IMG/VR virus record: IMGVR_UViG_3300042868_006771
Span: 1-54,113 of that record
Source: a virus
Lineage: Duplodnaviria > Caudoviricetes
Strand: one strand, 5' to 3'
DNA: 54,113 nucleotides
Shown here in pieces: positions 891-49,189 of this stretch; the first letter of the stretch is position 1, and each line of letters opens with the position of its first letter. Both the position numbers and the translations under genes were made by a program. The notes under the pieces were generated by a model. The model did not search any database. It was not told where the DNA came from and saw nothing but the letters and a program-made list of their open reading frames with translations.

Positions 891-1748
891 ATGTCTCAGC
901 ACCTTGTAATCAAATTAAGCCATGATCTTGAACTACGTTTTCAAATAAGATCAACCCCGTTAGCTGAACTATGGTTGGAACGTATGCATCAACGTCATGC
1001 CTGGACCATGGACAATCCAGATAGATTTTACGGATTTGGCACTGCTCAACAAGAACAACAACGTGCAGTTGACATGATTCAACAATGCATTGCCATAATC
1101 AATGCACATGATCCAATTATTGATCGAGAGTTTGAATACACACAAGATAGTCTCAATTATTTGCACAATATATTTGAACGCTACCACGGTCTACTAGATC
1201 AACAAACATCTGAATATTGGCACTCAGCACCTGACACAGTTAGACAATCATTAGCAAATTTAAATTTAGCAGTACACAGATGCGAAGCAGCCATGGCTGC
1301 ACCTTGCCCAAGGTTTGTTTGCACTTGGTTTGGTATGCCCAAGACCCAACAGTTGGATGTTGACACAATGAAAACTTATGGAGAACTTGAAGTCAAGTTT
1401 GGCACAGTATATCTCAACTACTGTGAGATTGGCAAGACTGTGGAAGACCTTGCGCAGGACAATGATATATACATAAGTGATAGTGCATTTAAGCCATTTG
1501 GTCACTACAGCGCAGATTTCAATGTGGCATTGTATGATTGGGACTTGAATCAAAAACTACCCAGCATGCAACAATACATTCAGCAACATCAAGAATTTTT
1601 TCTTGCTCACAGCATTGAAAATGTGTATAATGTACAAGCACTACCATTGCGATTTCCTGTGGCAGATTTAGAATACACTGGAACTCAACAACAACTAATA
1701 TCCCAAATAAGGTCACGACAACTTGTGCGTGAAGTAAGCATACAATGA
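891..1748 (+). CDS. hypothetical protein
   Basis: long ORF whose stop overlaps the uvsW start (ATGA). Confidence 0.75.
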   Translation: MSQHLVIKLSHDLELRFQIRSTPLAELWLERMHQRHAWTMDNPDRFYGFGTAQQEQQRAVDMIQQCIAIINAHDPIIDREFEYTQDSLNYLHNIFERYHGLLDQQTSEYWHSAPDTVRQSLANLNLAVHRCEAAMAAPCPRFVCTWFGMPKTQQLDVDTMKTYGELEVKFGTVYLNYCEIGKTVEDLAQDNDIYISDSAFKPFGHYSADFNVALYDWDLNQKLPSMQQYIQQHQEFFLAHSIENVYNVQALPLRFPVADLEYTGTQQQLISQIRSRQLVREVSIQ

Positions 1749-3214
1749 AACAATGCATCATACAGATACGTGACGAAGTAAACATCAAGATTGAAGGTCT
1801 GGACCTGGATGTTCGCAAGGCCTTGGTCAATGCATTTAAATATGAAAATCCTGCCGCACGTTATTTGCCGGCAGTGCGTTTAGGACGGTGGGATGGCAAG
1901 GTAGCATACTTCCAACTAGGTGGATCAACTTATGTGAACCTGCTGCCAGAGATCATGCCCATCTTGGAAAAGTTTGACTACGACATTGAACTAGATGATC
2001 AACGTGACTATTCGAACACATTCAATTTTGAGCAAGTGACTGAAACAAGTTTTGAACATGTGAAATGGCCCAAAGCACACCCGGCAGCAGGTGAACCCAT
2101 CATGTTGCGTGACTACCAAGTGGAGATCATCAACAACTTCTTGGCCAACCCACAGTGCATACAAGAAGTGGCCACAGGTGCAGGCAAAACAATCATGACA
2201 GCAGCCTTGAGCAATGCTGTCACACCTTATGGTCGTAGCATTGTTATTGTGCCCAACAAGAGCTTGGTCACTCAAACTGAAGCAGACTATAAGAACATGG
2301 AGCAAGATGTTGGTGTGTATTTTGGCGACCGAAAAGAATACGGACGTCAACACACAATATGCACATGGCAAAGTTTGAACAACCTGCTCAAGAACACCAA
2401 GGCCGGCATAGGCGATTGTACCATAGGTGAGTTTTTGGAAGACGTGGTATGTGTTATTGTGGACGAAGTACACATGGCCAAAGCAGATGCGCTAAAAACC
2501 TTGTTAACGGGTGTGATGGCTAGAGTGCCAATTCGCTGGGGACTGACTGGAACTGTGCCCAAGGAAAAGTTTGAAAGTCAAGCATTGCTTGTGAGTCTTG
2601 GTCCGGTAATTGGTAAACTCAGTGCCAGCGAATTACAACAACAAGGTGTGTTGGCCAACTGCCATGTGAACATTGTGCAACTGATTGATCATGTGGAGTA
2701 CAAAGATTACCAAAGCGAACTTAAATATTTACTGGAAGAATCAGGACGCTTGGATACCATGGCCGACTTGATAAACCGAGTCAATGAAACAGGCAACACA
2801 CTAGTGCTAGTAGATCGCACTGAATGTGGCAGACAACTGGTGGAGCGCCTGGGTGAGCGGGCAGTGTTTGTGTCTGGTGCAACCAAAACAAAAAACAGGC
2901 AAGCAGAATATGACGAAGTGGCCGACGCAACAGACAAAATTATTGTGGCCACATATGGCGTGGCCGCTGTTGGTATTAATATTCCTAGGATTTTTAATCT
3001 GGTTCTTGTAGAACCTGGAAAGAGTTTTGTCCGCGTTATACAAAGCATTGGACGTGGCATACGCAAAGCAGAAGACAAAGATCATGTTCAAATCTGGGAC
3101 ATAACATCAACTTGCAAGTTTGCCAAGCGCCATTTGACCAAGCGCAAACAGTTTTACAAAGAAGCCAACTATCCCTTTACACAAGAGAAACTGGACTGGA
3201 TGAAATTAGGTTGA
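1745..3214 (+). CDS. uvsW: UvsW-like SF2 DNA helicase
   Basis: LRDYQ, ATGAGKT, DEVH, GLTGT, QSIGRGIR motifs; N-terminal WDGK typical of UvsW. Confidence 0.9.
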   Translation: MKQCIIQIRDEVNIKIEGLDLDVRKALVNAFKYENPAARYLPAVRLGRWDGKVAYFQLGGSTYVNLLPEIMPILEKFDYDIELDDQRDYSNTFNFEQVTETSFEHVKWPKAHPAAGEPIMLRDYQVEIINNFLANPQCIQEVATGAGKTIMTAALSNAVTPYGRSIVIVPNKSLVTQTEADYKNMEQDVGVYFGDRKEYGRQHTICTWQSLNNLLKNTKAGIGDCTIGEFLEDVVCVIVDEVHMAKADALKTLLTGVMARVPIRWGLTGTVPKEKFESQALLVSLGPVIGKLSASELQQQGVLANCHVNIVQLIDHVEYKDYQSELKYLLEESGRLDTMADLINRVNETGNTLVLVDRTECGRQLVERLGERAVFVSGATKTKNRQAEYDEVADATDKIIVATYGVAAVGINIPRIFNLVLVEPGKSFVRVIQSIGRGIRKAEDKDHVQIWDITSTCKFAKRHLTKRKQFYKEANYPFTQEKLDWMKLG

Positions 3215-3239: not shown

Positions 3240-3245
3240 AACAAC

Positions 3246-3746: not shown

Positions 3747-3747
3747 C

Positions 3748-3894
3748 ATGCCCTACACTGAACCACAACTGTTTGAAAACTTGACTCGCATGGTAAAAAT
3801 TTACCTGGAAAGTTATCCTGAAGATCAGGAAGGCTTGGAACGATTTCTGCGCTGGGCACACACTCAATATGGCTACCGGTATGGGAACTCTTAA
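3748..3894 (+). CDS. 48-aa hypothetical protein
   Basis: MPYTEPQLFENLTRMVKIYLESYPEDQEGLERFLRWAHTQYGYRYGNS*, fills the gap between neighbours. Confidence 0.6.
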   Translation: MPYTEPQLFENLTRMVKIYLESYPEDQEGLERFLRWAHTQYGYRYGNS

Positions 3895-4180
3895 ACCCGG
3901 CGCCACCTACATCTACGAACGCAACGGCAATGAAGTGTATGCCCGTGAGTCAGGTGCTGACCCCAGCACAAGAGAACTAATGGGCTATGCATATGATCCA
4001 GTAAACGGACATCACATTGATTATGACAGCAGAACATCAGATGGTAGGCCCTTGTTTGATCACCTCCAGGAAAGTAAGATGTGGGGCGAAATTCGGCGCC
4101 TGGCCAAGACCAATCCTGCTTTACAAGATGCCTTGGAACGTGTTATAATGATATACAAGTTGATCAAGGTAGAAAAGTGA
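3881..4180 (+). CDS. hypothetical protein
   Basis: ORF in a tightly packed operon. Confidence 0.7.
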   Translation: MGTLKPGATYIYERNGNEVYARESGADPSTRELMGYAYDPVNGHHIDYDSRTSDGRPLFDHLQESKMWGEIRRLAKTNPALQDALERVIMIYKLIKVEK

Positions 4181-4629
4181 GCGACAAACTAAACATTGCC
4201 AATGAAATGCGACAACTGGATCGCAAAAACAGAAACTTCTATCACGAACTCACAGATGAAGAACGCAAGAAGTTTTCAAACTATCTCATGATTCGTTGGG
4301 CCAGTTGTGTAGAAGGTTCACGGGACCTACAAGAGTTTTACTTGATTTCCACCAACGAACGATTGAACAAACACTTCTTCAACATCAGTCGACACCCTGA
4401 ACTGCAATGGCTGTGTGCCACAACAGTAAGTCCAAACATGGGCACACCCAGACACAACTGGATCTCACCCAAGAAAAAAGAAACAGGTGCAGGCGCCAGC
4501 AGTATCAAAAAACAACTGGCTGAGTTGTTTCCCACATACAAAGAAGATGAAATAGCCATGCTGGCCTCAATGACCACCAAGAAAGAACTTGATCAATACA
4601 TCCGAGACCATGGCCGAGACACTAAGTGA
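4177..4629 (+). CDS. putative clamp-loader small subunit (gp62-like)
   Basis: GTG start overlapping the upstream stop; size and YLMIRW...NE...H...LQW...W..KK pattern recall T4-like gp62. Confidence 0.5.
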   Translation: MSDKLNIANEMRQLDRKNRNFYHELTDEERKKFSNYLMIRWASCVEGSRDLQEFYLISTNERLNKHFFNISRHPELQWLCATTVSPNMGTPRHNWISPKKKETGAGASSIKKQLAELFPTYKEDEIAMLASMTTKKELDQYIRDHGRDTK

Positions 4630-5299
4630 ACTCACTTGCGGCTACTGCAAGAAAACATTTCGTCGTGCAGAAAGTCTTGTGGTGCATTTGTGTGAGCCCA
4701 AACGCCGCAGACAAGAACGCAGTGAACGTGGTGTTGAACTGGGCTTTCAATCCTACTTGCGGTTCTATGAGATTGCACAAGGTTCGGCAAAGCTCAAAAC
4801 ATTTGATGACTTTGCGGACTCACCATACTACCGGGCCTTTGTAAAATTTGGCAGATACTGTGTAGGCACAAAGGCAATCAATCCCAGACAGTTCACAGAG
4901 TGGTTGCTCAAACACAACAAAAAGATTGACAACTGGGGCAGTGACAAAATCTATACTGAGTACCTGTTGGACTATTTGAAAGTGGAAGCAGTGGCAGACG
5001 CACTTGCACGAGCAGTGGAGTTTGGCATAGACTGGAGTGAGACTCACTCAGCACCCGCCAATGATTGTTTGCGTTATGGCAGCACACATGCCATGTGTTA
5101 TGCTGTCACAACAGGGCGCATCAGTCCTTGGGTGATTTACAATTGTGAGTCGGGACAAAAGTTCCTGGGCGAACTCACCGCCGACCAAGTGGCCATGATA
5201 TGGCCTTACATAGATAGTGACATATGGCAAAAGAAATTCGCAGACTATGCCGCAGATGCAGAATACGCTCGAGAAATATTGAAACAAGCAGGATGGTGA
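4610..5299 (+). CDS. C2H-type zinc-finger protein
   Basis: N-terminal CGYCKKTF...HLC. Confidence 0.65.
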   Translation: MAETLSELTCGYCKKTFRRAESLVVHLCEPKRRRQERSERGVELGFQSYLRFYEIAQGSAKLKTFDDFADSPYYRAFVKFGRYCVGTKAINPRQFTEWLLKHNKKIDNWGSDKIYTEYLLDYLKVEAVADALARAVEFGIDWSETHSAPANDCLRYGSTHAMCYAVTTGRISPWVIYNCESGQKFLGELTADQVAMIWPYIDSDIWQKKFADYAADAEYAREILKQAGW

Positions 5300-5300
5300 T

Positions 5301-5642
5301 ATGATCACAAACATTTATTCAACTAATTCATTTGTCACAGCACACAGCACAGTCGGCGGCACTTACATCAATCCTGGTAGTCCCAGTTCGGGTATGCTTA
5401 GATATTACAACAATCAAACGCAGGTATACGATGGGTCATCGTGGTTGCCCCTAGGTGGTACTGCCGCTGTGGGCTTGAGTCCAGAAGCTGAAGAAATCAT
5501 GAACTGGGCACGTAAAAAAATGCAGGAAGAAGCAGAAGCACGGCGTATGGCTGAACAGTATCCTGCTGTGGCAGATGCCTTGAACGCAGTATGGGAATCT
5601 GAACAACAATTAAAAACCATTGTGGCATTGTGTAGAACATGA
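5301..5642 (+). CDS. hypothetical protein
   Basis: ORF coupled to neighbours. Confidence 0.7.
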   Translation: MITNIYSTNSFVTAHSTVGGTYINPGSPSSGMLRYYNNQTQVYDGSSWLPLGGTAAVGLSPEAEEIMNWARKKMQEEAEARRMAEQYPAVADALNAVWESEQQLKTIVALCRT

Positions 5643-6199
5643 GTGCAGACATTGACATTGACTGCCCAGATCGATCTAAGATCCTAGAACTGATTCGTCA
5701 CACACCTGCTAGACAAGTTGTGGATGGAAAGCCGCGTAAACATAACTCGGGTATCTACATCACAGACATTCCGCAAGATCCTGAACATGGCTGTGCTGCC
5801 ATCGATTACGAAACAGCAGAACAGCGTGGCTACTTCAAAATTGACCTGTTGAACATGAGTGTGTATCAGTTGATCCAAGATCCCGCACACTACGAAACCA
5901 TGTTGTCAGCCGCACCTCCATGGTCACGACTGTGGACAGACAGACCCTGGGCCAGTCAGTTGGTACACGTGGGCAACTATGTGGATTTGTTGGCAGCAAT
6001 GCAGCCCGACTCCATACCCAGGATGGCTGCTTTCATCTCAATTATCAGACCAGGCAAAGCACACCTACAGCGACGGCCCTGGGACGAAGTGTTTGCGTCA
6101 GTGTGGGATGGGGATGAATCGCGTGGATATACGTTCAAGAAGAGCCATTCTATTTCCTATGCAGCCTTGGTGGCGTTACATATGAATCTCTTAAACTGA
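5639..6199 (+). CDS. miniature DNA polymerase III alpha (DnaE)-like catalytic fragment
   Basis: DIDID, KHNSG, FKIDLL, IRPG, YTFKKSH..SYA occur in DnaE order within 186 aa. Confidence 0.8.
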   Translation: MSADIDIDCPDRSKILELIRHTPARQVVDGKPRKHNSGIYITDIPQDPEHGCAAIDYETAEQRGYFKIDLLNMSVYQLIQDPAHYETMLSAAPPWSRLWTDRPWASQLVHVGNYVDLLAAMQPDSIPRMAAFISIIRPGKAHLQRRPWDEVFASVWDGDESRGYTFKKSHSISYAALVALHMNLLN

Positions 6200-6577
6200 T
6201 CAGTCTATTCTTCTCACCAAAGTAATGCTCTTTCTTTTGCTCTTTTTGCGAGCTATGTCTATCAAACTGCACACAGGGCCATGTAGTATTTCTAGATCTT
6301 TGTTGGAGAATGTGCGCAGGGTCGAACGAAACTTTTCCCAGTCCCCACGCAGGAATATGTTGATGGGTATGCTACGATTGCTTTCCCACCACCAAGTGTT
6401 GGCCAGTTCCAAAAACTGTAATTTGTCTTGTTGCGTGAGCACAGTACCAAAGTCGTAGATGGTTGTAACAGCGTCATCCTTGTTTTGCACAATACCCACG
6501 TATTCTTGATTGGCATATACACACAAGGTAATGAACGGATATTTTTCTGCTAGTTTCTCAAAAATATTGTTTCCCAT
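6200..6577 (-). CDS. hypothetical protein
   Basis: 125-aa ORF preceded by TAAATA (6588-6593, minus strand). Confidence 0.7.
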   Translation of the reverse strand: MGNNIFEKLAEKYPFITLCVYANQEYVGIVQNKDDAVTTIYDFGTVLTQQDKLQFLELANTWWWESNRSIPINIFLRGDWEKFRSTLRTFSNKDLEILHGPVCSLIDIARKKSKRKSITLVRRID

Positions 6578-6637
6578 AATACGAGAATATTTATGTATTA
6601 GTTTGACCGCTTACCAAAATCATTAAATATTATTATC

Positions 6638-7726: not shown

Positions 7727-7729
7727 AAC

Positions 7730-8809: not shown

Positions 8810-8812
8810 GCA

Positions 8813-8847: not shown

Positions 8848-9834
8848 ATGCTTGATATCCTTGCTTATCTACCTGCAAAAAAGAAACAGACACCTAGTGG
8901 CTGGTTGAGTTTCAATGCAGTGTGTTGTCAGCACAATGGAAGCACACAGGATCGACGAGGACGTGGTGGACTCAAAGCCACTGAGGCGGGCTGGAGTTAT
9001 CACTGTTTCAATTGCGCATACACAGCCAGTTTCATATTAGGTCGTACTGTAAGTTACAAGGCTCGAAAACTCCTGGGCTGGATGAATGTTCCCGAAGTAG
9101 AAATAGAGATGTTGAATCTTGAAAGTCTGCGGCATCGAAGCATCAATGGCATTTTAGAAGATCGGCAACAAATGTGGAACACACTGAGTGGTGTGTCGTT
9201 TAAAGAAAGAGACTTGCCACCTTTTGCTGAACTGCTGACACCCGAACACAAGTTCTATTGGGACTACGTGCGTGGCAGACATGTGCCAGAAGACTTTCCG
9301 GTCATGGTGCAGATACAAAATGATGGAATACACTGGACAAGATTGCATGTGGTCATACCATTCACCTACGACAACAAGATTGTGGGATACACCTGTAGAT
9401 TTTTAGATGACAAACAACCCAAGTTCATCAGTGACAGTCAACCGGGTTATGTGTTTGGGGTAGACTTACAGCACTCAGATTGGCAACATGTCATAGTCAC
9501 AGAAGGCATATTTGATGCACTCAGCATAGGTGGTGTAGCAGTGATGCACAATACCATAAGTGATGCACAAGTTAGATTGATACGCAGTTTAGACAAACAG
9601 ATAACAGTGGTGCCGGATCAAGATCAGGCAGGCGTTGAACTCGTTGATCGCGCACTGGAACTGGGCTGGGCAGTGAGCATACCTGATTGGCCCAACGGCT
9701 GCAAAGATGTTAATGATGCTGTGATAAAGTTGGGCCGATTAGGAGCCCTACTAACTATAATGCAATCGCGAGAGACCAGTAGAATTAAAATTGAACTAAG
9801 GAAAAAAGCACTTGTTAAAAGAATACGGACTTGA
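8848..9834 (+). CDS. DNA primase
   Basis: Zn-binding CC..H/YHCFNC; TOPRIM VTEGIFDA, PDQDQAG, KDVND. Confidence 0.9.
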   Translation: MLDILAYLPAKKKQTPSGWLSFNAVCCQHNGSTQDRRGRGGLKATEAGWSYHCFNCAYTASFILGRTVSYKARKLLGWMNVPEVEIEMLNLESLRHRSINGILEDRQQMWNTLSGVSFKERDLPPFAELLTPEHKFYWDYVRGRHVPEDFPVMVQIQNDGIHWTRLHVVIPFTYDNKIVGYTCRFLDDKQPKFISDSQPGYVFGVDLQHSDWQHVIVTEGIFDALSIGGVAVMHNTISDAQVRLIRSLDKQITVVPDQDQAGVELVDRALELGWAVSIPDWPNGCKDVNDAVIKLGRLGALLTIMQSRETSRIKIELRKKALVKRIRT

Positions 9835-11230
9835 CGTTCAACGATTATTTTTAGAAATGATGTTGGAAGATGCACAGAGTTATGTGCGTGTGCAGAACAT
9901 CTACAACCCGCAGAATTTTGACAAGAGTCTGCGACCTGCGGCCGAGTTCATAAAAGAACACAGTGACAAACACAAGACCTTGCCTGACCGTACGCAGATC
10001 TCTGCCACCACAGGCATTCGACTACAAGCAGTGCCTGACTTAAACGAAGGCCACTTTGATTGGTTCATGGGCGAATTCGAACAGTTTACCAAACGTCAAG
10101 AACTAGAACGTGCAATTCTCAAAGCCGCAGACATGCTGGAAAAGGGTGACTTTGAGCCTGTGGAGAAACTGATCAAAGATGCTGTACAAATATCGTTGAC
10201 CCGGGACATGGGCACAGACTATTTTGCAGATCCAGCAGGCCGTATCAACAAATATTTCAACTCAGGCGGACAAGTGTCAACCGGTTGGCCACAACTGGAT
10301 AGGTTGTTGTACGGTGGATTCAGTCGTGGTGAACTCAACATCTTTGCTGGTGGATCTGGTTCAGGTAAATCACTTGTGATGATGAACATTGCCTTGAACT
10401 GGTTGCAACAGGGGTTGAGCGGTGTGTACATCACACTGGAACTGAGTGAAGAACTAACAAGTTTGCGAACAGATGCTATGTTGACCAACATGAGTACCAA
10501 GGACATTCGCCGGGATATTGATACCACAGAACTCAAGGTCAAGTTAGTTGCAAAGAAGTCAGGCAACTATCAAGTCAAAGGATTACCAGCACAAAGCAAT
10601 ATCAACGACATACGTGCGTACTTGAAAGAGTATCAAATACAAACAGGCAAACGTGTGGACTTTGTGATGATTGATTACTTGGACTTGCTGATGCCTGTTA
10701 GTGCCAAAGTCAGTCCCAACGACTTGTTTGTCAAAGACAAATATGTTTCAGAAGAACTACGTAACCTGGCCAAGGAATTGGGCATACTCATGGTGACTGC
10801 AAGTCAGTTGAATCGATCGGCCGTGGAAGAAATTGAATTTGATCACAGTCACATCTCAGGTGGTATATCCAAAATTAACACAGCAGACAACGTGTTTGGT
10901 ATCTTTACTTCACGTGCCATGAAAGAGCGTGGCAAGTATCAGATACAGTGTATGAAGTCTCGGAGCTCGACCGGCGTTGGTCAAAAAATTGATTTGGAGT
11001 ACAACATTGAAACAATGCGCATTACTGACGAAGGCGGAGAAGATGGCGACACTTATTCAAAGAAGCCATCTGCATCCATTATGGACTCAATCAAAGCCCG
11101 CAGTCAAGTTAGCACGGCTAGTGGCGAGTCAGACACACCTCCATGGGACAGTACGGAGCCTGCCAAGGTCACAGCAGACGTTCAAAGTGCCAAACTAAAA
11201 CAACTATTAGGAAAGATCAAAACATCATGA
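9812..11230 (+). CDS. replicative DnaB/gp41-like helicase
   Basis: STGW..LD..LYGG, GGSGSGKS, ITLELSE, IDYLDL, TASQLNR; TTG start. Confidence 0.92.
   Translation: MLKEYGLDVQRLFLEMMLEDAQSYVRVQNIYNPQNFDKSLRPAAEFIKEHSDKHKTLPDRTQISATTGIRLQAVPDLNEGHFDWFMGEFEQFTKRQELERAILKAADMLEKGDFEPVEKLIKDAVQISLTRDMGTDYFADPAGRINKYFNSGGQVSTGWPQLDRLLYGGFSRGELNIFAGGSGSGKSLVMMNIALNWLQQGLSGVYITLELSEELTSLRTDAMLTNMSTKDIRRDIDTTELKVKLVAKKSGNYQVKGLPAQSNINDIRAYLKEYQIQTGKRVDFVMIDYLDLLMPVSAKVSPNDLFVKDKYVSEELRNLAKELGILMVTASQLNRSAVEEIEFDHSHISGGISKINTADNVFGIFTSRAMKERGKYQIQCMKSRSSTGVGQKIDLEYNIETMRITDEGGEDGDTYSKKPSASIMDSIKARSQVSTASGESDTPPWDSTEPAKVTADVQSAKLKQLLGKIKTS
11169..11223 (+). repeat. direct repeat copy 1 (helicase 3' end)
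   Basis: 55 nt, 51/55 identical to 12759-12813. Confidence 0.95.
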
Positions 11231-39594: not shown

Positions 39595-39658
39595 TTGTAG
39601 TGCCCATGGTGGGGCTACAATTCAAAGTCATCTTGCTTAATAAAGGAGAAAACAAATG
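39595..39658 (+). promoter_or_regulatory. ROSE-like RNA thermometer in the hsp20 5' UTR
   Basis: TCTTGCT (39631-37) pairs with SD AGGAGA (39644-49) with a bulged G; 5' hairpin at 39595-39620. Confidence 0.6.
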
Positions 39659-40114
39659 ACAAAAACTCTAACCCTTCGCACATTCGATCTTCCCGCAATT
39701 CACAAATTTGGTATCGGTTTCGATAACTTGTTTGATGATCTCATGCGTGTCAACGCCCAACAAGGCAACACCAACTATCCACCTTATGACATTGTGCAAA
39801 TCAATGATGATGAGTACATGATTAGTTTGGCTGTGGCTGGCTTTGGTCATGACAACCTAAATATAACCAAGGACAAAAAGACCTTGGTCATTGAAGGCAA
39901 ACACAGCCGTGAGACTGTGGACAGCGAAGACAGCACTGCAAAATACTTGCACAAAGGCATCAGCGAACGAAGTTTCCGCAGGGAATTTCAACTGGCTGAT
40001 CACGTGGAAATCAGCAATGCACATCTTGAACTTGGTATCTTGAATGTTCACTTGAAACGTGAAGTTCCTGAAGAAGCCAAACCAAAGACCATTGCGATCT
40101 CTTACAAAGAGTAA
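39656..40114 (+). CDS. ibpA: small heat-shock protein (IbpA-like)
   Basis: IGFD, NYPPYDI, AVAGF, YLHKGI..R.F.R.F.L, G.L. Confidence 0.93.
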   Translation: MTKTLTLRTFDLPAIHKFGIGFDNLFDDLMRVNAQQGNTNYPPYDIVQINDDEYMISLAVAGFGHDNLNITKDKKTLVIEGKHSRETVDSEDSTAKYLHKGISERSFRREFQLADHVEISNAHLELGILNVHLKREVPEEAKPKTIAISYKE

Positions 40115-40127
40115 TATAATGTAAATA

Positions 40128-40153
40128 CAGTGACAGCAATCCTGCTGTCACTG
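40128..40153 (+). terminator. stem-loop after hsp20
   Basis: cagtgacagca-atcc-tgctgtcactg perfect 11-bp stem; weak U-tract. Confidence 0.55.
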
Positions 40154-40179
40154 ATTGAGCAACAATGCAAGGAATAGAA

Positions 40180-40491
40180 ATGGCACAGAGCGACGTTCGC
40201 ACACGAATCAAACCATCAGAGGCTGTGAAAGAGCCACCTATGTTCAAAGTTATCTATCTCAATGATAACCAAACCACAATGGACTTCGTAGTAGACAGTT
40301 TGATTGAATATTTTGACTACACTGCCGAGACTGCAGAACAAATTACAGTGGATATTCATCAAGCAGGGCAAGCCACAGTGGCCGTATTACCTTATGAAAT
40401 TGCCGAACAAAAAGGCATTGAAGTAACACTTAGCGCACGGTCACAGAGCTATCCACTGCAAATTAAGCTGGAACCCGAAACAGTGAATTAA
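40180..40491 (+). CDS. clpS: ClpS adaptor
   Basis: PPMFKVIYLNDNQTTMDFVV, IH..G.A, EIAEQK, YPL. Confidence 0.92.
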   Translation: MAQSDVRTRIKPSEAVKEPPMFKVIYLNDNQTTMDFVVDSLIEYFDYTAETAEQITVDIHQAGQATVAVLPYEIAEQKGIEVTLSARSQSYPLQIKLEPETVN

Positions 40492-41276
40492 TCGTCTATG
40501 ACAATACGCAGGGGGTGATACACATACTGGCGCCATTCAGTGTCGCCCCTACCCCTGCAATTGTTGACAAATCTTATCCCTTGACGTATTTGATCCACAC
40601 TCCCATGGTAATGACCAAAGCACCAGGTGTGCAATTTGTTTTCTGTGTCGGCGCTCAATGCCTGCATCATGAATCCATTGCCCATGGTGTTGAATCGCAA
40701 GGTGTCAGCAATGCCAATGTCGTGAGCAATTAAACTTGAATTAGGTACAGTGTGTGTTACACAAACAATTTTTTTGACATCTGCATGAGTTTGCAATCGC
40801 TTGATGCTGCTGATCATGTACTTGGCATCTGTTGTGGCCAATCGACCCACAGTTTTGGCAACCAACGCAGAAACTTGACACTGATCTTGAAACCACAATG
40901 AAGTCTGTTCAGCATCTATTGACGGATCTAAATCATAAGTCCACCAGCCATTGGTTCCCAGTATGGCCACACCGTCTACTACCACAACATTGTCTTGCAA
41001 AAATACCACGTTGGGAATTTTTTTTATGCGGCGAACTAGATCGGCGTAGCTGGCATTCAGATCATCATAGTAATATCGATGTTCATCATTGCCATCAACA
41101 TAAAACACTGCTTGATAGCATGTGGCAAGATGACGCAATGTATTGATCACCACTTCGCGATCACGTGCAAGGTCACCGGCCACAACACAATGGGCACTGG
41201 TCGCCAGTCCAGTCCAGTCAAATTCAGGCCAAGTTTCGGCGTGAAGGTCAGAAATTAAATCAAATGCAAAACTCAT
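40488..41276 (-). CDS. calcineurin-like metallophosphoesterase
   Basis: SDLH, AGD, GNDE, THT.P, FGHYH. Confidence 0.85.
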   Translation of the reverse strand: MSFAFDLISDLHAETWPEFDWTGLATSAHCVVAGDLARDREVVINTLRHLATCYQAVFYVDGNDEHRYYYDDLNASYADLVRRIKKIPNVVFLQDNVVVVDGVAILGTNGWWTYDLDPSIDAEQTSLWFQDQCQVSALVAKTVGRLATTDAKYMISSIKRLQTHADVKKIVCVTHTVPNSSLIAHDIGIADTLRFNTMGNGFMMQALSADTENKLHTWCFGHYHGSVDQIRQGIRFVNNCRGRGDTEWRQYVYHPLRIVIDD

Positions 41277-41300
41277 GATACATATTTAAAAGGATCGCAC

Positions 41301-41657
41301 ATGAACATTATATTTGGAGACGCACTGGAAACTTTGCCTGACAACTACACTGTGTTGGAATTAGACACATTTGTGTTTCCGCCTGACAGCCAGAAACGCA
41401 CCAGTTATTGTGTGGTTGAAAAAGTGCCCTTGACAGATTTTCCCATGATGGAATCCTACATCAAAGTACATGCTGACATGATGCAGGCCTATAGGGACCA
41501 AAACTGGGACTATTGTTTGCACGCCATCAAAGGCCTAACAGGACGCTGGAACGGCGAGTTAGACAGTTTTTACTCTAATTTGTTGCAACGTGTAGAGCAG
41601 TATCAAGCCAATCCGCCAGGTGACTACTGGACTGGTTATATTGATCGAACTGTTTAA
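41301..41657 (+). CDS. hypothetical protein
   Basis: RBS AAGGA. Confidence 0.7.
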   Translation: MNIIFGDALETLPDNYTVLELDTFVFPPDSQKRTSYCVVEKVPLTDFPMMESYIKVHADMMQAYRDQNWDYCLHAIKGLTGRWNGELDSFYSNLLQRVEQYQANPPGDYWTGYIDRTV

Positions 41658-41950
41658 ATTTCAGGACTGCTACCGGTCTTGTCCTCGCCGGCACCCAACA
41701 CACATGCCAATCTAGTATCATATTCTATCATGGTCCAACTACGTGTTTCTTTGTTGACCAACAACGTTATATGAGTGTTGTGTACTGATTTTCCAACCCA
41801 GACTGGTATTTCTTTGTGTGTGTCTACAAAATAGTTCATGACTATTTGTGCATCTGAACATTTTAAAGATTTTTGTAAATCTATAATTTCCTGGGCGTGG
41901 GCTATAGAGCTGATTAGGCAGAATAGGAACGCCATTGTTGTGTTACGCAT
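41654..41950 (-). CDS. secreted hypothetical protein
   Basis: signal peptide ending AHA; RBS AAGGAG. Confidence 0.7.
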   Translation of the reverse strand: MRNTTMAFLFCLISSIAHAQEIIDLQKSLKCSDAQIVMNYFVDTHKEIPVWVGKSVHNTHITLLVNKETRSWTMIEYDTRLACVLGAGEDKTGSSPEI

Positions 41951-41977
41951 GATGGCTCCTTAAACGATTATTTATTG

Positions 41978-42313
41978 TCAGGGTGCGAATGTATCACTCA
42001 TGATATACACAGTAACACCAACACGCTGCCGTTCATTGAAGATATCTCGCCAGGCAGGCATTTTGCGAAATCCATTGGTCACCCGATCGTACACAAAGTC
42101 AGGTTGGTAGCTGGAAGATTTGAGTTTGGGTGCCTTGCCAGGATACGCACTGTTGCCGTGGCAATGTCGACACTGACCGTCCCATACCTGCTGACCTAAC
42201 GCAATCAAAGAGGTATCCTTCATCACAGTGTCTGTGAATGCTGGTGCCGATTCTTGGCAGTAGGCAGCATGACTAAAGATATAAAATAACAACACCACTG
42301 CCGCGTTTTTCAT
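41978..42313 (-). CDS. monoheme class I cytochrome c
   Basis: signal peptide, G..VW...CRHCHG, P.L, distal MPAW; RBS AGGAGA. Confidence 0.85.
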   Translation of the reverse strand: MKNAAVVLLFYIFSHAAYCQESAPAFTDTVMKDTSLIALGQQVWDGQCRHCHGNSAYPGKAPKLKSSSYQPDFVYDRVTNGFRKMPAWRDIFNERQRVGVTVYIMSDTFAP

Positions 42314-42338
42314 AGTGGCTTCTCCTGTGTAATATTTA

Positions 42339-43337
42339 TTACACAACAGGCACTAAATTATTTCGAAATATTTCCCAGGCAGTTTGCCATGACCAACGCT
42401 GACTGCCGTCCCAAACTCGATGTCTGGGCAAGAACAAACAATCTGTTACTGCTTGTTTCAAGTAAGGATTCATACATCCTGTGATGCCTTCGTCTATGAC
42501 ATCCAATGGCCCAGTAGCAGGATATGCAGCCACCGGAGTTCCGCAGGCCATGGCTTCGATCATCACAATGCCAAATGTTTCCCACTGACTGGGAAACACA
42601 AACACATCTGCCAGGTTGTAGTAGTAGGCTAGATCAGCACCAGTTTTGAATCCCACAAACTCCACGTCAGGATAACGTGACTGTAACTCTGCACGATAAG
42701 GACCATCGCCTACTAAAATCTTGCGTGAGTTGGGATAACTCATGCCACAAAAGTCATCCAAGTTCTTTTCTTTGCTGACTCTACTTACACATACCAAGGT
42801 GGTCTTGGCATTGGGCCGGCGTTCTCTGGGATAAAATATCTCTCTATCCACACCACGTGTCCATGGTATGATGTCACCGTCGAACCCATGCTCGCGCAAC
42901 TCCTGTACCATGGTTTCAGTCGTGGTCAGCACTTTTCCTGAGTGTTTGTGAAACCAACGCACTAGAGGCCAAGTAATGGCTTCAGGTATGCCAAACAGTT
43001 TTCTAAGTCCTTCTGGAAATTTAGTATGATAAGCAGTGTTGTAGCGATAATGATGTTTGTCAAGATATTGTCTAACACGCAAACCCACAGGACCCTCGGT
43101 GGCGATGTGGATATGATCCGGACGGATCTCCTCAAGTATCGCGCCCACATTCCGGGGAAGGGCAATCTTGACTTGGTTGTAGCCAGGGCAATCAAAGTAG
43201 CGGAACCGCCCGGGATCAAGATATACAACACGATAGTTGTCGCGAATCGCATGCGCCTCAATATTTTTGTAAGTGGTAACCACGCCATTGATCTGATCCG
43301 GTAAGTTGTCTGTGACTATTAAGATTGTTTTTGACAT
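42339..43337 (-). CDS. GT4 glycosyltransferase, Agt-like glycolipid synthase
   Basis: IVTD..P.QINGVV.T, HIATEGP.G, TAYHT.FPE, RVSKEKN, VFPS..ETFG.V.IEAMACGTPV. Confidence 0.8.
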   Translation of the reverse strand: MSKTILIVTDNLPDQINGVVTTYKNIEAHAIRDNYRVVYLDPGRFRYFDCPGYNQVKIALPRNVGAILEEIRPDHIHIATEGPVGLRVRQYLDKHHYRYNTAYHTKFPEGLRKLFGIPEAITWPLVRWFHKHSGKVLTTTETMVQELREHGFDGDIIPWTRGVDREIFYPRERRPNAKTTLVCVSRVSKEKNLDDFCGMSYPNSRKILVGDGPYRAELQSRYPDVEFVGFKTGADLAYYYNLADVFVFPSQWETFGIVMIEAMACGTPVAAYPATGPLDVIDEGITGCMNPYLKQAVTDCLFLPRHRVWDGSQRWSWQTAWEIFRNNLVPVV

Positions 43338-43492
43338 TGCCCCGTTACCTTGAATGTTTTAAACTTTAAATCATATCGCATGGTCGCCAACACCTGTTCG
43401 CAACTGAGCTGATTTGGGAAAACTAATTCTATTCTTCCGGGTTGATCTTGCGGATTCGTGCTGTGTACTGCTATCAATATCATCAACCACAT
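43319..43492 (-). CDS. 57-aa two-Cys protein overlapping the plcP 3' end
   Basis: RBS AGGAG; MWLMILIAVH...SCEQ...GQCQKQS*. Confidence 0.55.
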   Translation of the reverse strand: MWLMILIAVHSTNPQDQPGRIELVFPNQLSCEQVLATMRYDLKFKTFKVTGQCQKQS

Positions 43493-44243
43493 TGTCAGTC
43501 TCCTGTGTCCAAGTTACAATTTCCCATGTGCCATCATGGCGTTCTACCAAGGCTGTGCATGACTCTACCCAGTCGCCATCATTCATGTATGCAACGCCAT
43601 CTATATCTTTGATCTCTGCGTGATGTATGTGTCCGCAGATCACACCGTCGAATCCGCGTTTCCGGCAGTAGTCAGCAAGATTACGTTCAAAGTGAAATAT
43701 AAAGTCTACTGCTTTTTTGACCCGGTGTTTAAGGAACAGGCTAAGGCTAAAGTACCCAAAACCCATGCGATGACGAATCCAATTAATCCTAGTATTGAGC
43801 CCAAGAATGAAATCATATGCTTTGTCTCCCAACATTGCCAACCATGGCGCCAGTCTAGTGATGCCGTCAAACATGTCACCATGTACCACAAGATAATGCC
43901 GACCGTCTGCACCTATGTGTTCTGTTTGATTTACCAATTCAATTATGCCGAATCCAATGCCATACTGCATGAAGGGTCTTAGAAACTCGTCGTGATTACC
44001 AGCTACATATACAACCCTAGTACCACGCTTGCTATGACCCAGCACACGGCGAATAACATTAGTGTGCGACTGTTTCCATCGCCATTTGTTTTGTTTGATT
44101 TTCCATGCATCTATGATGTCTCCCACAAGATACAGCGTTTCGCAAGTGTTGTGTTTGAGAAAGTTGTTGAGTTTGTCAGCCTGGCTGTCTTTGGTGCCAA
44201 GATGAACATCGCTGATGAATATACTGCGATAAGTTTTTTGCAT
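43371..44243 (-). CDS. plcP: PlcP-like phospholipase C (LpxH2-type metallophosphoesterase)
   Basis: SDVHLG, LVGDIID.W, GNHDE (His, not the LpxH Arg), HGD.FD, CGHIH, N.GDWVES; next to an Agt-like GT. Confidence 0.75.
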   Translation of the reverse strand: MQKTYRSIFISDVHLGTKDSQADKLNNFLKHNTCETLYLVGDIIDAWKIKQNKWRWKQSHTNVIRRVLGHSKRGTRVVYVAGNHDEFLRPFMQYGIGFGIIELVNQTEHIGADGRHYLVVHGDMFDGITRLAPWLAMLGDKAYDFILGLNTRINWIRHRMGFGYFSLSLFLKHRVKKAVDFIFHFERNLADYCRKRGFDGVICGHIHHAEIKDIDGVAYMNDGDWVESCTALVERHDGTWEIVTWTQETDNVVDDIDSSTQHESARSTRKNRISFPKSAQLRTGVGDHAI

Positions 44244-44507: not shown

Positions 44508-44828
44508 CTAATTCTGCAATGTTTCTTGCCTGGCTGCTTGCAATTCTTTGCGTAGAGTATTGTAATCTTCTAGTGTAGCAACGGAAGGCACAGTAGACTT
44601 CATATAGGCAGGCGGTACAGTCTGCCATTCAGATTCACTCACACCGGCCACAATCATGGCAGTGTATTCGTGTCCGTCGCTGGTGTGCAGTTTTACTCGT
44701 TCAAATCCTTGTGGAGTCTTTGCTGCGTTCATACAGGCCTGTGCCAGTGCTCTAAGAGCCGCTGGGTCTGCTATGATGTGCAAATCTTGTTGGGGTTCAC
44801 TGTGAGGGTATATGTGTAGTCTAGCCAT
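44508..44828 (-). CDS. hypothetical protein coupled to the DnaE-like gene
   Basis: TAATG overlap with the upstream stop. Confidence 0.7.
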   Translation of the reverse strand: MARLHIYPHSEPQQDLHIIADPAALRALAQACMNAAKTPQGFERVKLHTSDGHEYTAMIVAGVSESEWQTVPPAYMKSTVPSVATLEDYNTLRKELQAARQETLQN

Positions 44829-46504
44829 TATGTTATGTGCTCAATGTCCTTTAGTTTCATACGTTTGCTTTTGTACACTTTAACACATTCACTACTGTTT
44901 GTATAGTCTAAACGGCCTTTGCCCCACAAGATTGGTTGATCGCTAAAGGACATGGCATGTGGCACTATCACATCTAGATAACGACCGTTGCCGGTGCCCA
45001 GGGTGGCAAAGGTTATGTAGTCTTTGGCGCCGCTTTTAAACACACGATAATTGGCCACCAATCCCAAAAACTCCACTTCGCCGGGACGTCTTATTTCAGT
45101 ACAGGCAGGAATAAAATTACTGCTGCTCCAACGACCAGTTCTTGCTAGTTCAGCACACTCTCCACCTTGGCTGGGCGAAGGCACAGCTCCGGCCAGTTTG
45201 GCTTCTTGATAATACACCCAACTGCTGTAACTGCCTTCGCAGTGTTTCAAACAGGCTCGCCAGAAAGCCTCAGGGTTATGTGCCTTTTGATAGGCCAAGG
45301 CCCAGATCAATCTGCCCAGATTGGTGGCATGAGCTCGACACAGTCCAAAATGACTGAGTTCACGTAGTGACGCCAACACACTATCACGTTTGGGATGATC
45401 ACCAATCAATTGCATAAACTCATAGATCTTTTCCTCATTGCGTTTGGCAAATGCTCTGCGCCACATGTCGGCAGTGTACATGTCACAACCCAGGATATCA
45501 GCAATCATGGTGATAGCATCATCCTCAAACACCACTGTGTCTTGCTGTATGGTATCAGCACTCCAGTCTTGGAACGCACTGGCTTTGCGTCTGCCTTGTG
45601 TGGCCACTGGACGGATCAAGGCAGTGGCCAATGTACAGTCACTTTTGCTCTTGACTTTTAAAGCGCGAAACAGTCTTTTCATAGCTGGTGATTCGCCTTG
45701 AGTCACACCCAACACATCACCACGACCCAGCAAGTCACTGGTCTTTTCATCATGTTCAGGATAGTCTGTTAGTGGACGCTGATCTATTTCCCACAACTGG
45801 CTCAGTCCACGATTGGCCAAGATATCTATTTTGAAATGTTCAAGATCTTCTGTTTCGTATTTGTCTAACAAGATTTGATTGTTGCCATTGATCAGGCTTT
45901 TGGGCACAGCACGATCAAAAATTAAGATGCCACCACAGTGTTTTGATATACAGCGTTTTTTGCCCATAAGTTTGGCTGTGACTCGTTCTGCTTCCTGTAT
46001 CTCTTCTGGAGGCAATACTTGGCTGAATTCAAAGCCACGTTTGAGTGTGCCTTTGGCTCCTAGCCTTTTGGCGGCTTCTCTCTTGGCAGACTTTTCTTTG
46101 TACATTACATAGTTGCTGACCCTGGCACTTTGTCCCGGCCAACGACGGAATATGCGATTCATCACAGTGGCCTGTTGCCAGTGTGGAAAGTCAAGATCAA
46201 TATCGGGCAGATCGTCACGTTTGGGATTCATGAAACGTGCTATGGGGATATTCTCTGCCACTGGGTCAAGATCGCTGATGCCCATGAGCCAGCACACAAG
46301 ACTTGAGCCTGCTGATCCTCGAGTGATGTGTGGTATGTCTGTGGTTAAATCTAATATTTCTCTCACACGCAAGAAGTGTCGAGAAAAATTTTGATCTCTA
46401 ATTAGTTCTAGTTCTTCTGCCAGTCTGTGTGCGTATTTGGGATCTTGGGGTAATTCTCTTCTAAATTGTTTTACTAGTTGTTCAAGTTCTCGATATCTAT
46501 CCAT
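44828..46504 (-). CDS. dnaE: PHP-less compact DNA polymerase III alpha-like protein
   Basis: RL.EEL..I, RGSAGSSLV, DLDP, RFMNP.R...PDIDLDF, KHCGG, KIDIL, IRP, AYQKAH. Confidence 0.85.
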   Translation of the reverse strand: MDRYRELEQLVKQFRRELPQDPKYAHRLAEELELIRDQNFSRHFLRVREILDLTTDIPHITRGSAGSSLVCWLMGISDLDPVAENIPIARFMNPKRDDLPDIDLDFPHWQQATVMNRIFRRWPGQSARVSNYVMYKEKSAKREAAKRLGAKGTLKRGFEFSQVLPPEEIQEAERVTAKLMGKKRCISKHCGGILIFDRAVPKSLINGNNQILLDKYETEDLEHFKIDILANRGLSQLWEIDQRPLTDYPEHDEKTSDLLGRGDVLGVTQGESPAMKRLFRALKVKSKSDCTLATALIRPVATQGRRKASAFQDWSADTIQQDTVVFEDDAITMIADILGCDMYTADMWRRAFAKRNEEKIYEFMQLIGDHPKRDSVLASLRELSHFGLCRAHATNLGRLIWALAYQKAHNPEAFWRACLKHCEGSYSSWVYYQEAKLAGAVPSPSQGGECAELARTGRWSSSNFIPACTEIRRPGEVEFLGLVANYRVFKSGAKDYITFATLGTGNGRYLDVIVPHAMSFSDQPILWGKGRLDYTNSSECVKVYKSKRMKLKDIEHIT

Positions 46505-46667: not shown

Positions 46668-48050
46668 TTAAAAGTTGATTTGTGTGCGAACACTGACCAC
46701 ATTTTCTTTAGTGGTTGTGCCCATGTCAGTGGTGTCCAATGGTGCAATTGCTGTGTCAAATTTGGTGGTAGCATAGTTGGCCATGATTCTAGCATTGCTG
46801 TTAAGAATCCAGTTTACACCGTAGGTCACAGTTCTAGCACCAGTTGAGTTTTGTGTGCGGTTGCCTGTCACAGCACCGTCAACACTGTTGCTGCCAGCGG
46901 CTGAATATTCAGAAACACGCACACCCACTTGCCATGCACCGTGACCATTGCCCACAACACCGCCGTAGTCTTTCATGAACACCGACGATGGGGTGATGCC
47001 ACCGAATGCACCACCTTTGTAACTCTTGGCAAAGTCTTCACCAGTGATGTTGTACATGGCTTCTACATACTTGGCCTGAACACGAACATCTTGTGTGGCC
47101 ACACAAGCAGTGGTCACGCAACTGGTAGCACCTGTAACATAGTTATAGGTGTTGGCCGAAGCTGAGTAGTTGCTGTCAAAGTTTTCTGCTTGCAGTTTAA
47201 ATGGACCATGTGCCAGGGCCAGTTCAATACCGTTCATGGTACGCTGAATGCTCACTGCATTGTTGGCAGTGGCACCATAGGCTGCTGTGTCAATCTTGTC
47301 ACCACCAATCTGGGCACGATAAACATTGCTCATACCACGTGCTTCTGAACGCATGGACACAATGGTACCGCGTGTGGTTGTGCTGGGAGCATCCACAGTG
47401 TTGCCTGAAGTTGTGGGCACCAACTGTGACCGTCCACCAGTACGTGCCACACCCAAGTGCAACACAGTGTTGGGTCTAGCAATCAATTGACCAAAGTTCA
47501 CAGCCACACGTGCCGCATACTGTGAGCCCAAGGTGTTGTCGTTGTTACTTTCAGTGAAGTCACCTTGAAATGCTGACAATCCATACACTAAACCAGCACT
47601 TGGTTCGCCGTGTAGCATCACGCCCAAACGTTTACCTGGTACCAATTGATTGCCATATGAACGTTCCATAAAGCCAATGTTGTTAGAGCTAGTTTGCTCT
47701 TCCAAGCTGAAAGGCTGTTTGAATCTACCTGTGCGTAACTGTGCTGACTTATTAAAGCCATAATTGACAAACGCAGTGTCAATAAAGTTAGTAGTACCGC
47801 CAACAGCATTGCCCACCAACTCATAGTTGATCTGCTTGTTGATACTGCCATTGATACCAATTCTAGCTCTACGCAGTTCAAAGTTGTCGCCCACGCTGGC
47901 ACTGTCACGGTCCACAGAGTCTGTTAGATCTGTTTGGAATGCTCGTGTGTCAAAATGCACACGGCCTGTGACCTTGGCATCCACCTGTGCCATTGCTGGC
48001 GATGTCAGGGCCACAAATACTGCAGCCAAGACTAATTTCGTAAATTTCAT
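46668..48050 (-). CDS. phosphate-selective porin OprO/OprP family
   Basis: signal peptide, FELRRARIG, GRFKQPFSLE..TSS....FMER, Y...TGE, GVNW.LN, C-terminal Phe. Confidence 0.85.
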   Translation of the reverse strand: MKFTKLVLAAVFVALTSPAMAQVDAKVTGRVHFDTRAFQTDLTDSVDRDSASVGDNFELRRARIGINGSINKQINYELVGNAVGGTTNFIDTAFVNYGFNKSAQLRTGRFKQPFSLEEQTSSNNIGFMERSYGNQLVPGKRLGVMLHGEPSAGLVYGLSAFQGDFTESNNDNTLGSQYAARVAVNFGQLIARPNTVLHLGVARTGGRSQLVPTTSGNTVDAPSTTTRGTIVSMRSEARGMSNVYRAQIGGDKIDTAAYGATANNAVSIQRTMNGIELALAHGPFKLQAENFDSNYSASANTYNYVTGATSCVTTACVATQDVRVQAKYVEAMYNITGEDFAKSYKGGAFGGITPSSVFMKDYGGVVGNGHGAWQVGVRVSEYSAAGSNSVDGAVTGNRTQNSTGARTVTYGVNWILNSNARIMANYATTKFDTAIAPLDTTDMGTTTKENVVSVRTQINF

Positions 48051-48115: not shown

Positions 48116-49135
48116 TTATTTTTTGATCTGTGACCAAACACGGTCACGAATCTGTTGAGTCAGAACATCTGGCAACGGCACGTAGTCTAGATCCAGTGCG
48201 GCCTTTTGTCCATTCTTAAATGCCCAGTCAAAGAATTTCAATGCTTCGGCACTTTGTTTACGATCTGTGGGATCCTTGTACATGAGAATAAAACTAGCAG
48301 TGCTCACTGGCCACACTGCGTCGCCCTTTTGATCCACAATGCTCAGGCCCATACCAGGCACACTGAACCAATCTGCACCAGCAGCCGCGGCAGCAAAGGT
48401 GGTGTCATCTGGTGATACCCAGCGACCATTGCGGTTCTGCATCTGCATGAACACCAGTTTGTTTTTCTTCACATACGCATACTCAACATAGCCGATGCTA
48501 CCTTTAATACGTGCCACATTGGCAGCAACACCTTCATTGCCTTTGCCACCCACAGAACTTGGTGCAGGCCATTTTACAGCAGCACCACGACCCACACGTT
48601 CCAACCAGGCAGGACTGGCTGTGCTGAGATAGTCAGTCCAGTTAAATGTGGTACCTGAACCATCAGCACGATGTACAACGGTAATGGTTTGATCTGGCAA
48701 CACCTTGCCGGGATTGAGGGCCTGAAGTCGAGCATCATTCCACTTGGAGATGTCGCCCAAGAAAATTTCTGCCAGCACTGGACCGGTGACTCTGAGTTCA
48801 CCAGGTTTAAATCCCTGTAGATTCACAATGGGCACAGTGCCGCCAATGATGGCAGGAAACTGTACCATGCCTTCTTTTTCTAAATCTGCACCTGACATGG
48901 GTGCATCTGTAGCACCAAATATCACAGTCTTGGCTTTGATCTGTCTGATGCCACCTGAACTGCCGATACTTTGGTAGTTCAATTGAACATCGTGTTTTTC
49001 GCTGTAGATTTCAGCCCACTTGCTATAAATGGGAAAGGGGAAAGTTGCGCCTGCCCCAGTGATGGTGTTTTGAGCATTTGCTGACGGACTCAGCAAATAT
49101 AGTGTTGCGGCCAACAAGGCCAAGATTTTTTTCAT
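48116..49135 (-). CDS. pstS: phosphate ABC transporter substrate-binding protein PstS
   Basis: GAGATFP.P.Y.KW, YQSIGSSGG, FGATD, HRADGSGTT, GKGNEGV, IGYVEY. Confidence 0.96.
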   Translation of the reverse strand: MKKILALLAATLYLLSPSANAQNTITGAGATFPFPIYSKWAEIYSEKHDVQLNYQSIGSSGGIRQIKAKTVIFGATDAPMSGADLEKEGMVQFPAIIGGTVPIVNLQGFKPGELRVTGPVLAEIFLGDISKWNDARLQALNPGKVLPDQTITVVHRADGSGTTFNWTDYLSTASPAWLERVGRGAAVKWPAPSSVGGKGNEGVAANVARIKGSIGYVEYAYVKKNKLVFMQMQNRNGRWVSPDDTTFAAAAAGADWFSVPGMGLSIVDQKGDAVWPVSTASFILMYKDPTDRKQSAEALKFFDWAFKNGQKAALDLDYVPLPDVLTQQIRDRVWSQIKK

Positions 49136-49189
49136 GTGTTTTCCTTTGTGAATTTGTGCGATTGCACAATAATATTTAAACACAAAGAT

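Follow-up and report, generated by a model that had tools for sequence, protein, structure and literature searches.

An open reading frame (ORF) at 5639..6199 (+) of the virus contig IMGVR_UViG_3300042868_006771 raises the question of what can be performed by a protein of only 186 amino acids (aa) that carries the motifs of DnaE-type DNA polymerases. The window, i.e. the whole stretch of DNA that was analysed (54,113 nucleotides, positions 1 to 54,113 of the record), belongs to an uncultured jumbo phage of lake water (Duplodnaviria; Caudoviricetes) and corresponds to about 11% of its genome according to CheckV completeness. The original prediction, which was made from the letters of the sequence alone, saw in this product a "minimal polymerase core" and considered it either half of a polymerase split in two, its RGS part being encoded at another place, or a repurposed primer-handling nucleotidyltransferase. 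According to the alignment, the predicted fold and the match to PHROG 11778 obtained here, it is the C-terminal (Mg2+-/template-binding) unit of a split minimal DNA polymerase III (Pol III) alpha. The word "core" is therefore misleading: the protein is half a catalytic core and not a core by itself. Below it is called the C-half, and the unit with the GRGS loop, encoded by another gene, is called the N-half.

The ORF has an ATG start and a TGA stop, and its product reads MSADIDIDCPD...KHNSG...FKIDLLN...IIRPGK...GYTFKKSHSISYAAL. All DnaE motifs listed in the original prediction are there, in order: DIDID occupies residues 4-8 and is followed by H35-x-x-G38 (KHNSG), K67-I-D69 (KIDLL) and two motifs of the fingers, R137-P-G139 and Y164-x-F-K-K-S-H170-x-x-x-Y174. 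They are backed by an alignment of 80 sequences, composed of the window protein and 79 cluster representatives with 27-63% identity. These 79 were taken from 82 representatives, leaving out P0335, which has no DxD at its start, as well as P0380 and P0385, whose matches start at residue 32-33. Residues D4, D6, K67, D69 and P138 are invariant in 80/80 homologues, i.e. all three catalytic aspartates are kept, and D8, A24, H35, G38, P45, W95, P123, A130, I136, R137, K140, K167, H170 and A175 are conserved in at least 90% of them. The motif RGS/GRGS is absent from the 186-aa sequence, and the Pfam search with E<=10 returned a chance E1A row alone, with no PHP, thumb or OB model, just as had been predicted. 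The estimate of about one-sixth of DnaE length is also accurate, given the 1160 residues of the Escherichia coli (E. coli) chain.

Homology to Pol III alpha was registered at the level of profile and fold. A phmmer search of the PDB with the single sequence of the C-half gave chance rows alone (E>1). The profile of 80 sequences gave nine Pol III alpha chains with E from 3e-6 to 7e-5, and nothing else below E 0.9. Its positions 55-140 align to E. coli residues 539-641, where KID corresponds to the VKFDF segment and RPG to LFRPG; for positions 151-180 the counterparts are residues 739-769, and FKKSH coincides there with FNKSH. In the papers on Pol III alpha structures the aligned E. coli residues are assigned to binding of dNTP (deoxynucleoside triphosphate) and metal. 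Three regions of the E. coli enzyme are skipped in the alignment: from the DxD strand to residue 539, from 641 to 739, and all beyond approximately 770. Judged from sequence comparison, the C-half is thus composed of three DnaE parts, the DxD strand, the strand of the third aspartate and a shortened fingers segment, and it is devoid of the thumb, of about 100 fingers residues and of everything past approximately residue 770. The stretch between RPG and FKKSH amounts to about 25 residues vs about 100 in E. coli. With the same alignment AlphaFold2 built a model of the C-half with a predicted local distance difference test value (pLDDT) of 96.5 and a predicted template modelling score (pTM) of 0.88. 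The top 17 rows of the Foldseek search against PDB were all C-family polymerases, with probability up to 1.00, including Pol III alpha of Taq, E. coli and M. tuberculosis as well as PolC. The same search against BFVD gave four hits with E<=1e-3, and 13 named proteins among its top 22 rows were all DNA polymerase or DnaE. Comparison of the predicted structure with the Pol III alpha palm, which was advised together with the original prediction, has therefore given a match: the best relatives of this fold are C-family polymerases and not proteins of some other fold.

The family of the C-half is already known. The protein matches PHROG 11778, "DNA polymerase" (E 9e-51; its residues 3-185 cover positions 7-191 of the 197 in the profile), and, weakly, long DnaE-type PHROGs. 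In group 2.2 jumbo phages a split minimal DNA polymerase III alpha was described computationally by Iyer, Anantharaman, Krishnan, Burroughs and Aravind in 2021 (Viruses 13:63, PMC7824862): the N-terminal unit binds NTP, the C-terminal unit binds Mg2+ and the template, and their genes lie far apart. In the passages of that paper devoted to the split enzyme, synthesis of one strand or repair is suggested as its role, and the enzyme is proposed to model what the ancestral Pol III module was like. By the description given in these passages the 186-aa protein is the C-terminal unit of that enzyme, i.e. a new example of a published kind. Among the literature from 2021 on, this paper alone was found to deal with the split minimal Pol III of jumbo phages. 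The main text of the PA5oct omics paper (PMC7318152), searched by terms, contains nothing about the C-half homologue; that of a 2026 jumbo-phage review (PMC13282480) never mentions Pol III, DnaE or a split, and the word "phage" never occurs in that of Timinskas et al. 2014 (PMC3919608).

Relatives of the C-half are numerous. Using tblastn they were found in 96 phage records, in 95 with coverage of at least 80%, and with identity up to 41.5%; all 96 are jumbo phages of the PA5oct/MIJ3, Atu_ph07, Phosso and PBECO4/121Q-like kind, whose isolates have this gene annotated as "hypothetical protein", "DNA polymerase" or "DNA polymerase III alpha". One of the phages with a homologue is Escherichia phage Sharanji. 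When the first 20 kb of the window were compared with phage records by Megablast, no match was obtained. A word-indexed search returned 7424 proteins of 102-326 aa that match the C-half at E<=1e-3, the best 120 being 186-201 aa long, and an exhaustive search of 50%-identity cluster representatives returned 367 at E<=1e-3 and 215 at E<=1e-10. Both families, that of the C-half and that of the N-half, comprise thousands of metagenomic clusters at 90% identity, and the stretch of the window itself turns up in many lake-water runs.

The gene is also maintained by selection. For estimation of the ratio of nonsynonymous to synonymous substitution rates (dN/dS) it was taken from 75 of 80 IMG/VR loci with 81-96% identity, five being missed by the motif-based extraction. 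Together with the window these copies encode proteins of 192 (44 copies), 189 (15), 186 (11), 190 (3), 193 (2) and 174 aa (1), and the lone 174-aa copy is cut by a contig end, so that 75 of the 76 fall between 186 and 193 aa. When each copy is compared with the window by the Nei-Gojobori method, the median dN/dS is 0.079 (range 0.056-0.136, 49 distinct sequences), and pairwise values have a median of 0.087 and a maximum of 0.196 (1194 pairs with dS of 0.1-2). Variable length without purifying selection had been named beforehand as a sign of decay; the homologues display stable lengths and, with dN/dS of about 0.08, strong purifying selection. At a larger distance, 82 of the best 150 cluster representatives have 179-216 aa and the remainder are mostly shorter pieces, which is what short contigs would be expected to give.

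If the polymerase is split, the missing loop has to be sought in another gene. The search for a small ORF with GRGS, proposed in the original prediction, gave nothing in the window, but it was successful in Phosso, PAC2, the closest large relative of the window phage (G001) and seven of seven near-complete relatives. Searching with PF07733 revealed a small ORF in each of two isolates, Phosso (177 aa) and PAC2 (169 aa), with a match confined to positions 21-97 of the profile; the two products end with ...WGVGRGSSVASYVLFLIG...EFL(N/K)-stop and are encoded far from the C-half. In G001 (212 kb, 61% complete, C-half 92% identical to that of the window) the N-half has 170 aa counted from a conserved ATG and lies about 99 kb from the C-half, with a GroES-like gene after it. 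The N-half of relatives passes PF07733, and its family contains at least 8000 members, almost all of 170 aa. R139-G-S-S142 is invariant in the aligned N-halves, and EFL[RK]-stop ends 39 of 41 diverse IMG/VR N-halves, the other two being cut by extraction coordinates. Five large genomes (89-100% complete) were picked by the N-half; each of the five has exactly one C-half 95-119 kb off (measured along the shorter arc in one record that has terminal repeats), and the N-half is the sole PF07733 match in each. Both halves are also present in the two near-complete genomes picked by another polymerase, described below, which brings the number to seven of seven.

The halves were also met in one chain. 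The exhaustive search of representatives found a 375-aa protein (P0290), where both parts are fused in DnaE order through a 10-residue linker; it is a single observation, a singleton cluster from one 2415-bp metagenome contig with no IMG/VR relatives. A 397-aa row, which came from a word-based search for longer forms, was spurious, covering 15% of the query. The surroundings of the N-half were inspected in three genomes: it is followed by one small ORF and then by the gene of a GroES-type co-chaperonin in G001 (L088:1950-2342), PAC2 (L006:3712-4038) and Phosso (L007:3742-4092), and in the two annotated isolates, PAC2 and Phosso, an AAA ATPase gene is located further downstream.

The ability of the two chains to form one active site was estimated by co-folding, as had been suggested, with the N-half of G001 (alignment of 38) and the C-half of the window (alignment of 80). 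The interaction prediction score from aligned errors (ipSAE) was 0.92 in three runs vs 0.00 for the best control. Among solved complexes 58 of 80 attain this value, and among mismatched pairs 2 of 110, which is a rough calibration with own alignments used. The runs had at least 97% of contacts in common, with partner pLDDT of at least 92. The predicted contacts involve residues 131-144 of the N-half and 2-10 of the C-half, the closest being those of residues 134-136 (in IWGVG) with residues 7-8 (in DIDID). In the predicted complex, then, the GRGS loop comes to lie next to the acidic strand, which is the arrangement of a Pol-beta-type active site. Together with the distant N-half of relatives this supports the first alternative of the original prediction, a split polymerase with its RGS part elsewhere.

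One can assume the following composition of the enzyme. The C-half would supply the metal-binding strand with D4 and D6, the third aspartate D69 (with K67) and short fingers (R137-P-G and K167-K-S-H170). The N-half of about 170 aa, encoded approximately 100 kb away beside the GroES gene, would contribute the other half of the palm, the first one, including the GRGS loop that binds the nucleotide. Most likely the two chains assemble non-covalently, because only three residues precede DIDID and nothing follows EFLR, so that inteins could not be accommodated. One Pol-beta-like nucleotidyltransferase site may arise by pairing of the IWGVGRGSS strand (N-half) with the DIDID strand (C-half), and the product could be a templated DNA polymerase accessory to the family B replicase, engaged in primer extension or in gap filling and repair. 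With good confidence the 186-aa product can be regarded as the C-terminal unit of the split minimal Pol III alpha that group 2.2 (T4-like) jumbo phages possess. Its identity, conservation, purifying selection and fold have been demonstrated, together with the joint occurrence of the halves and a confidently predicted interface, whereas it is inferred that the complex forms in cells, copies a template and plays an auxiliary part. Location of the C-half in a primase-helicase module suggests primer extension as one candidate role.

Several observations weigh against this interpretation. By itself the C-half matches no Pfam model, including PF07733 (DNA_pol3_alpha) and PF17657 (DNA_pol3_finger). 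The best Foldseek E-value against PDB is 2.7e-3, none being <=0.001, and the query-normalised template modelling score is 0.34-0.49; such modest values are expected because the query is small and the targets have long insertions. There is no N-half gene in the window, so the phage's own N-half is unseen, but this absence is uninformative because the window is a fragment of the genome. Three of four contigs picked by the C-half are without an N-half, these three being only 13-29% complete. The N-half used for co-folding came from a relative (with a C-half 92% identical) and not from the window phage. Since the halves belong to a fold with solved structures, their passing the co-fold check may be memory, i.e. 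likeness to solved Pol III may explain the high score, which demonstrates likeness and not binding. Absence of the thumb and of a clamp-binding part makes processive synthesis unlikely. Finally, the literature search, which covered the main text of papers, found no bench test of the split enzyme.

Accepting that the halves assemble, one may still suppose that the product is a template-independent nucleotidyltransferase or a non-catalytic component of the replisome. Lack of the thumb, the helix-hairpin-helix (HhH)/clamp-binding and OB parts is in line with this supposition, as are the fingers reduced to about a quarter hundred residues between RPG and FKKSH, and the availability of a family B replicase in complete relatives and of a full single-chain DnaE in the lineage. 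Yet the three aspartates, K67, R137, K167 and H170 either never vary or are kept in at least 90% of the sequences, and the RGSS of the N-half is invariant, which argues for catalysis, and the fingers motifs that have been retained are those common to DnaE-type polymerases. A product other than a templated polymerase seems, therefore, improbable, but of all alternatives it is the likeliest.

The second alternative of the original prediction, according to which the 186-aa protein acts alone or with some other partner as a repurposed primer-handling protein, is considerably less plausible. It is favoured by the gene's place in the primase/helicase module beside two conserved genes, by the remoteness of the N-half gene, which belongs to another module, and by the confident model obtained for the C-half by itself. 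However, an active site of the Pol-beta type needs the GS loop, which is lacking on this chain. Both halves come together in all seven near-complete genomes, the sizes of their families are similar, the co-fold is strong and one fused form exists. This alternative is not needed to account for the protein, though a low probability has to be left to it.

The window contains another polymerase of the same family, which has to be distinguished from the split one. The gene at 44828..46504 (-) encodes a single-chain PHP-less DnaE-type polymerase of 558 aa (PF07733 E 2.1e-37, PF17657 E 1.5e-11). This protein has a complete set of motifs, RGSAGSS, DIDLD and KID, on the one chain and represents a second C-family polymerase, a paralogue and no piece of the split enzyme. 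It is overlapped by an ORF of 105 aa at 44508..44828 (-), which shows weak similarity to Imm32 (E 8.5e-5, below cut-off). Both belong to a 2.3-kb stretch, 44281-46576, that is missing in G001, where the flanks are colinear with 71-86% identity. The 558-aa polymerase is also absent from Phosso, PAC2 and five of five near-complete genomes, all of them holding the split halves. IMG/VR contains 88 relatives of this protein, and its best GenBank phage match, LR756508.1, has the single-chain form only. A possibility that the C-half complements or regulates this polymerase, encoded 39 kb downstream, might be considered in view of their common contig and weak homology, but the 558-aa protein possesses its own RGS, DxD and KxD, and G001, the five near-complete relatives, Phosso and PAC2 keep the C-half without it, so this connection is very hard to believe. 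As to a decaying DnaE fragment, of which the small size and the lack of Pfam hits are reminiscent, this explanation is refuted by low dN/dS, steady length of 186-193 aa in 75 of 76 close copies and catalytic residues invariant in 80 sequences.

Coming back to the split enzyme, its coexistence with other polymerases was registered in two near-complete relatives of the window phage, G010 (320 kb) and G011 (337 kb, with terminal repeats). Each has the single-chain DnaE, the N-half, the C-half at a distance of about 100 kb from it, and an ORF of about 890 aa for family B polymerase. The latter was found in three of three near-complete relatives and neither in the window nor in G001; the group 2.2 markers present in the window are the UvsW-like helicase, primase and DnaB. 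The lake-water sub-lineage of the window, G010 and G011 thus keeps three polymerase systems: family B (found in G010 and G011), single-chain DnaE and the split mini Pol III. Strong purifying selection of the latter persists beside other polymerases, one of which is a second, complete DnaE-type enzyme, and this argues against simple redundancy. Formation of the mini Pol III active site may depend on co-expression of the distant N-half, whose gene is linked to GroES, so that the enzyme would be switched on by assembly. It can be proposed, only as a tentative and rather doubtful extension, that in these three-polymerase phages subunit assembly turns on a mini Pol III having a dedicated and non-redundant job, such as extension of primase products.

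Genes around the C-half fit the replication context. The replication/recombination module is opened by the gene of a UvsW-like DNA helicase at 1745..3214 (+) (ResIII, DEAD, Helicase_C, UvsW_N). The product of 4589..5299 (+), with a likely start at ATG 4610, combines a C2H2 zinc finger at its N-terminus with a helical part (phrog_11058, E 1.5e-51); its zf-C2H2 match is weak and below cut-off. It is followed by an ORF of 113 aa at 5301..5642 (+), which has no family and looks like a variable passenger, being found in close relatives only and not kept in more distant ones. On the other side of the C-half a convergent gene of 125 aa occupies 6200..6577 (-) (phrog_11637, E 1.2e-32), and its stop abuts that of the C-half with no spacer. 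Further along are a Toprim (DnaG-type) primase at 8848..9834 (+) (phrog_47, Toprim_2) and a DnaB-like replicative helicase at 9812..11230 (+) (DnaB_C, E 1.3e-21). The original prediction spoke of translational coupling in a replication operon. The context of replication has been confirmed, and coupling is plausible from the ATGA at 5639-5642, in which the ATG of the C-half overlaps by two bases the TGA of the upstream 113-aa ORF.

Synteny of this region is preserved in PAC2 and Phosso as the UvsW helicase, small genes, the C2H2-type protein, the C-half, a small gene on the minus strand, primase and DnaB. The phrog_11058 and phrog_11637 genes flank the C-half in 10 of 10 related loci and in both of these isolates; their products are candidates for extra subunits or for the missing parts of the polymerase. 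In the Atlas the zinc-finger protein matches unnamed viral clusters only, and its fold, predicted by AlphaFold2 on nine sequences, is poor (pLDDT 66, pTM 0.46, best Foldseek E 1.2). Scanning of positions 1-12000 for promoters and terminators gave counts equal to those of shuffled sequences (28 vs 24.7 and 10 vs 9.8, respectively). Two metatranscriptome runs contained short contigs only, mostly less than 95% identical and covering parts of 4589-6577; such libraries can contain DNA.

Outside this module the window carries several genes of host-like appearance. A phosphate-selective porin O/P is encoded at 46668..48050 (-) (PF07396, E 1.4e-39) and adjoins the gene of a PstS-like periplasmic binding protein at 48116..49183 (-) (PBP_like_2, E 1.8e-35). 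The two look like phosphate-uptake genes of a host, and an outer-membrane porin encoded by a phage is unusual. In the region 39656..44243 Pfam models recognised Hsp20, the ClpS adaptor, a cbb3-type cytochrome c domain protein, a GT4 glycosyltransferase and a calcineurin-like metallophosphoesterase.

The split mini Pol III can be considered a natural experiment that bears on what catalysis requires of the parts of DnaE. If it is active, its approximately 355 residues in two chains would make up the smallest C-family polymerase core known. To the earlier picture of this enzyme, which is left unchanged, the window adds a well-supported member.

Compared with the split minimal Pol III in the relevant passages of Iyer et al. 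(2021), our example represents the same family, split in the same way and in the same type of phage, with UvsW and DnaB, and with family B polymerase in relatives. Nothing essential differs, the copy from the window being at most 41.5% identical to those of cultured phages; what its lineage adds is the single-chain PHP-less DnaE, which these passages do not mention for group 2.2. With cellular DnaE (E. coli 2HNH, T. aquaticus 2HPI/4IQJ) the C-half shares homologous palm and fingers, the same acidic triad and the KSH motif. It differs in having 186 residues instead of approximately 1160-1220, in the absence of PHP, thumb, clamp-binding and OB parts, in a much shorter distance from RPG to KSH, and in the GS loop placed on another chain. 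Single-chain PHP-less DnaE, such as the 558-aa protein of the window, that of LR756508.1 and those of PB1-like Pseudomonas phages (e.g. F8), have in common with it the C-family palm and fingers and the lack of PHP. The 558-aa polymerase is weakly alignable to the C-half over residues 29-140, but it is one chain with its own RGS, passes Pfam cut-offs, which the C-half does not, and has about 80 residues between DxD and KH(C/N)xG, vs about 25 in the C-half. In cyanobacteria DnaE is encoded by two distant genes, DnaE-n and DnaE-c, and split inteins ligate the halves of the product into a full-length enzyme. The phage polymerase resembles it in belonging to the C family and in being divided between two distant genes, but there are no split-intein halves at the phage break, and its chains would have to work together as separate molecules.

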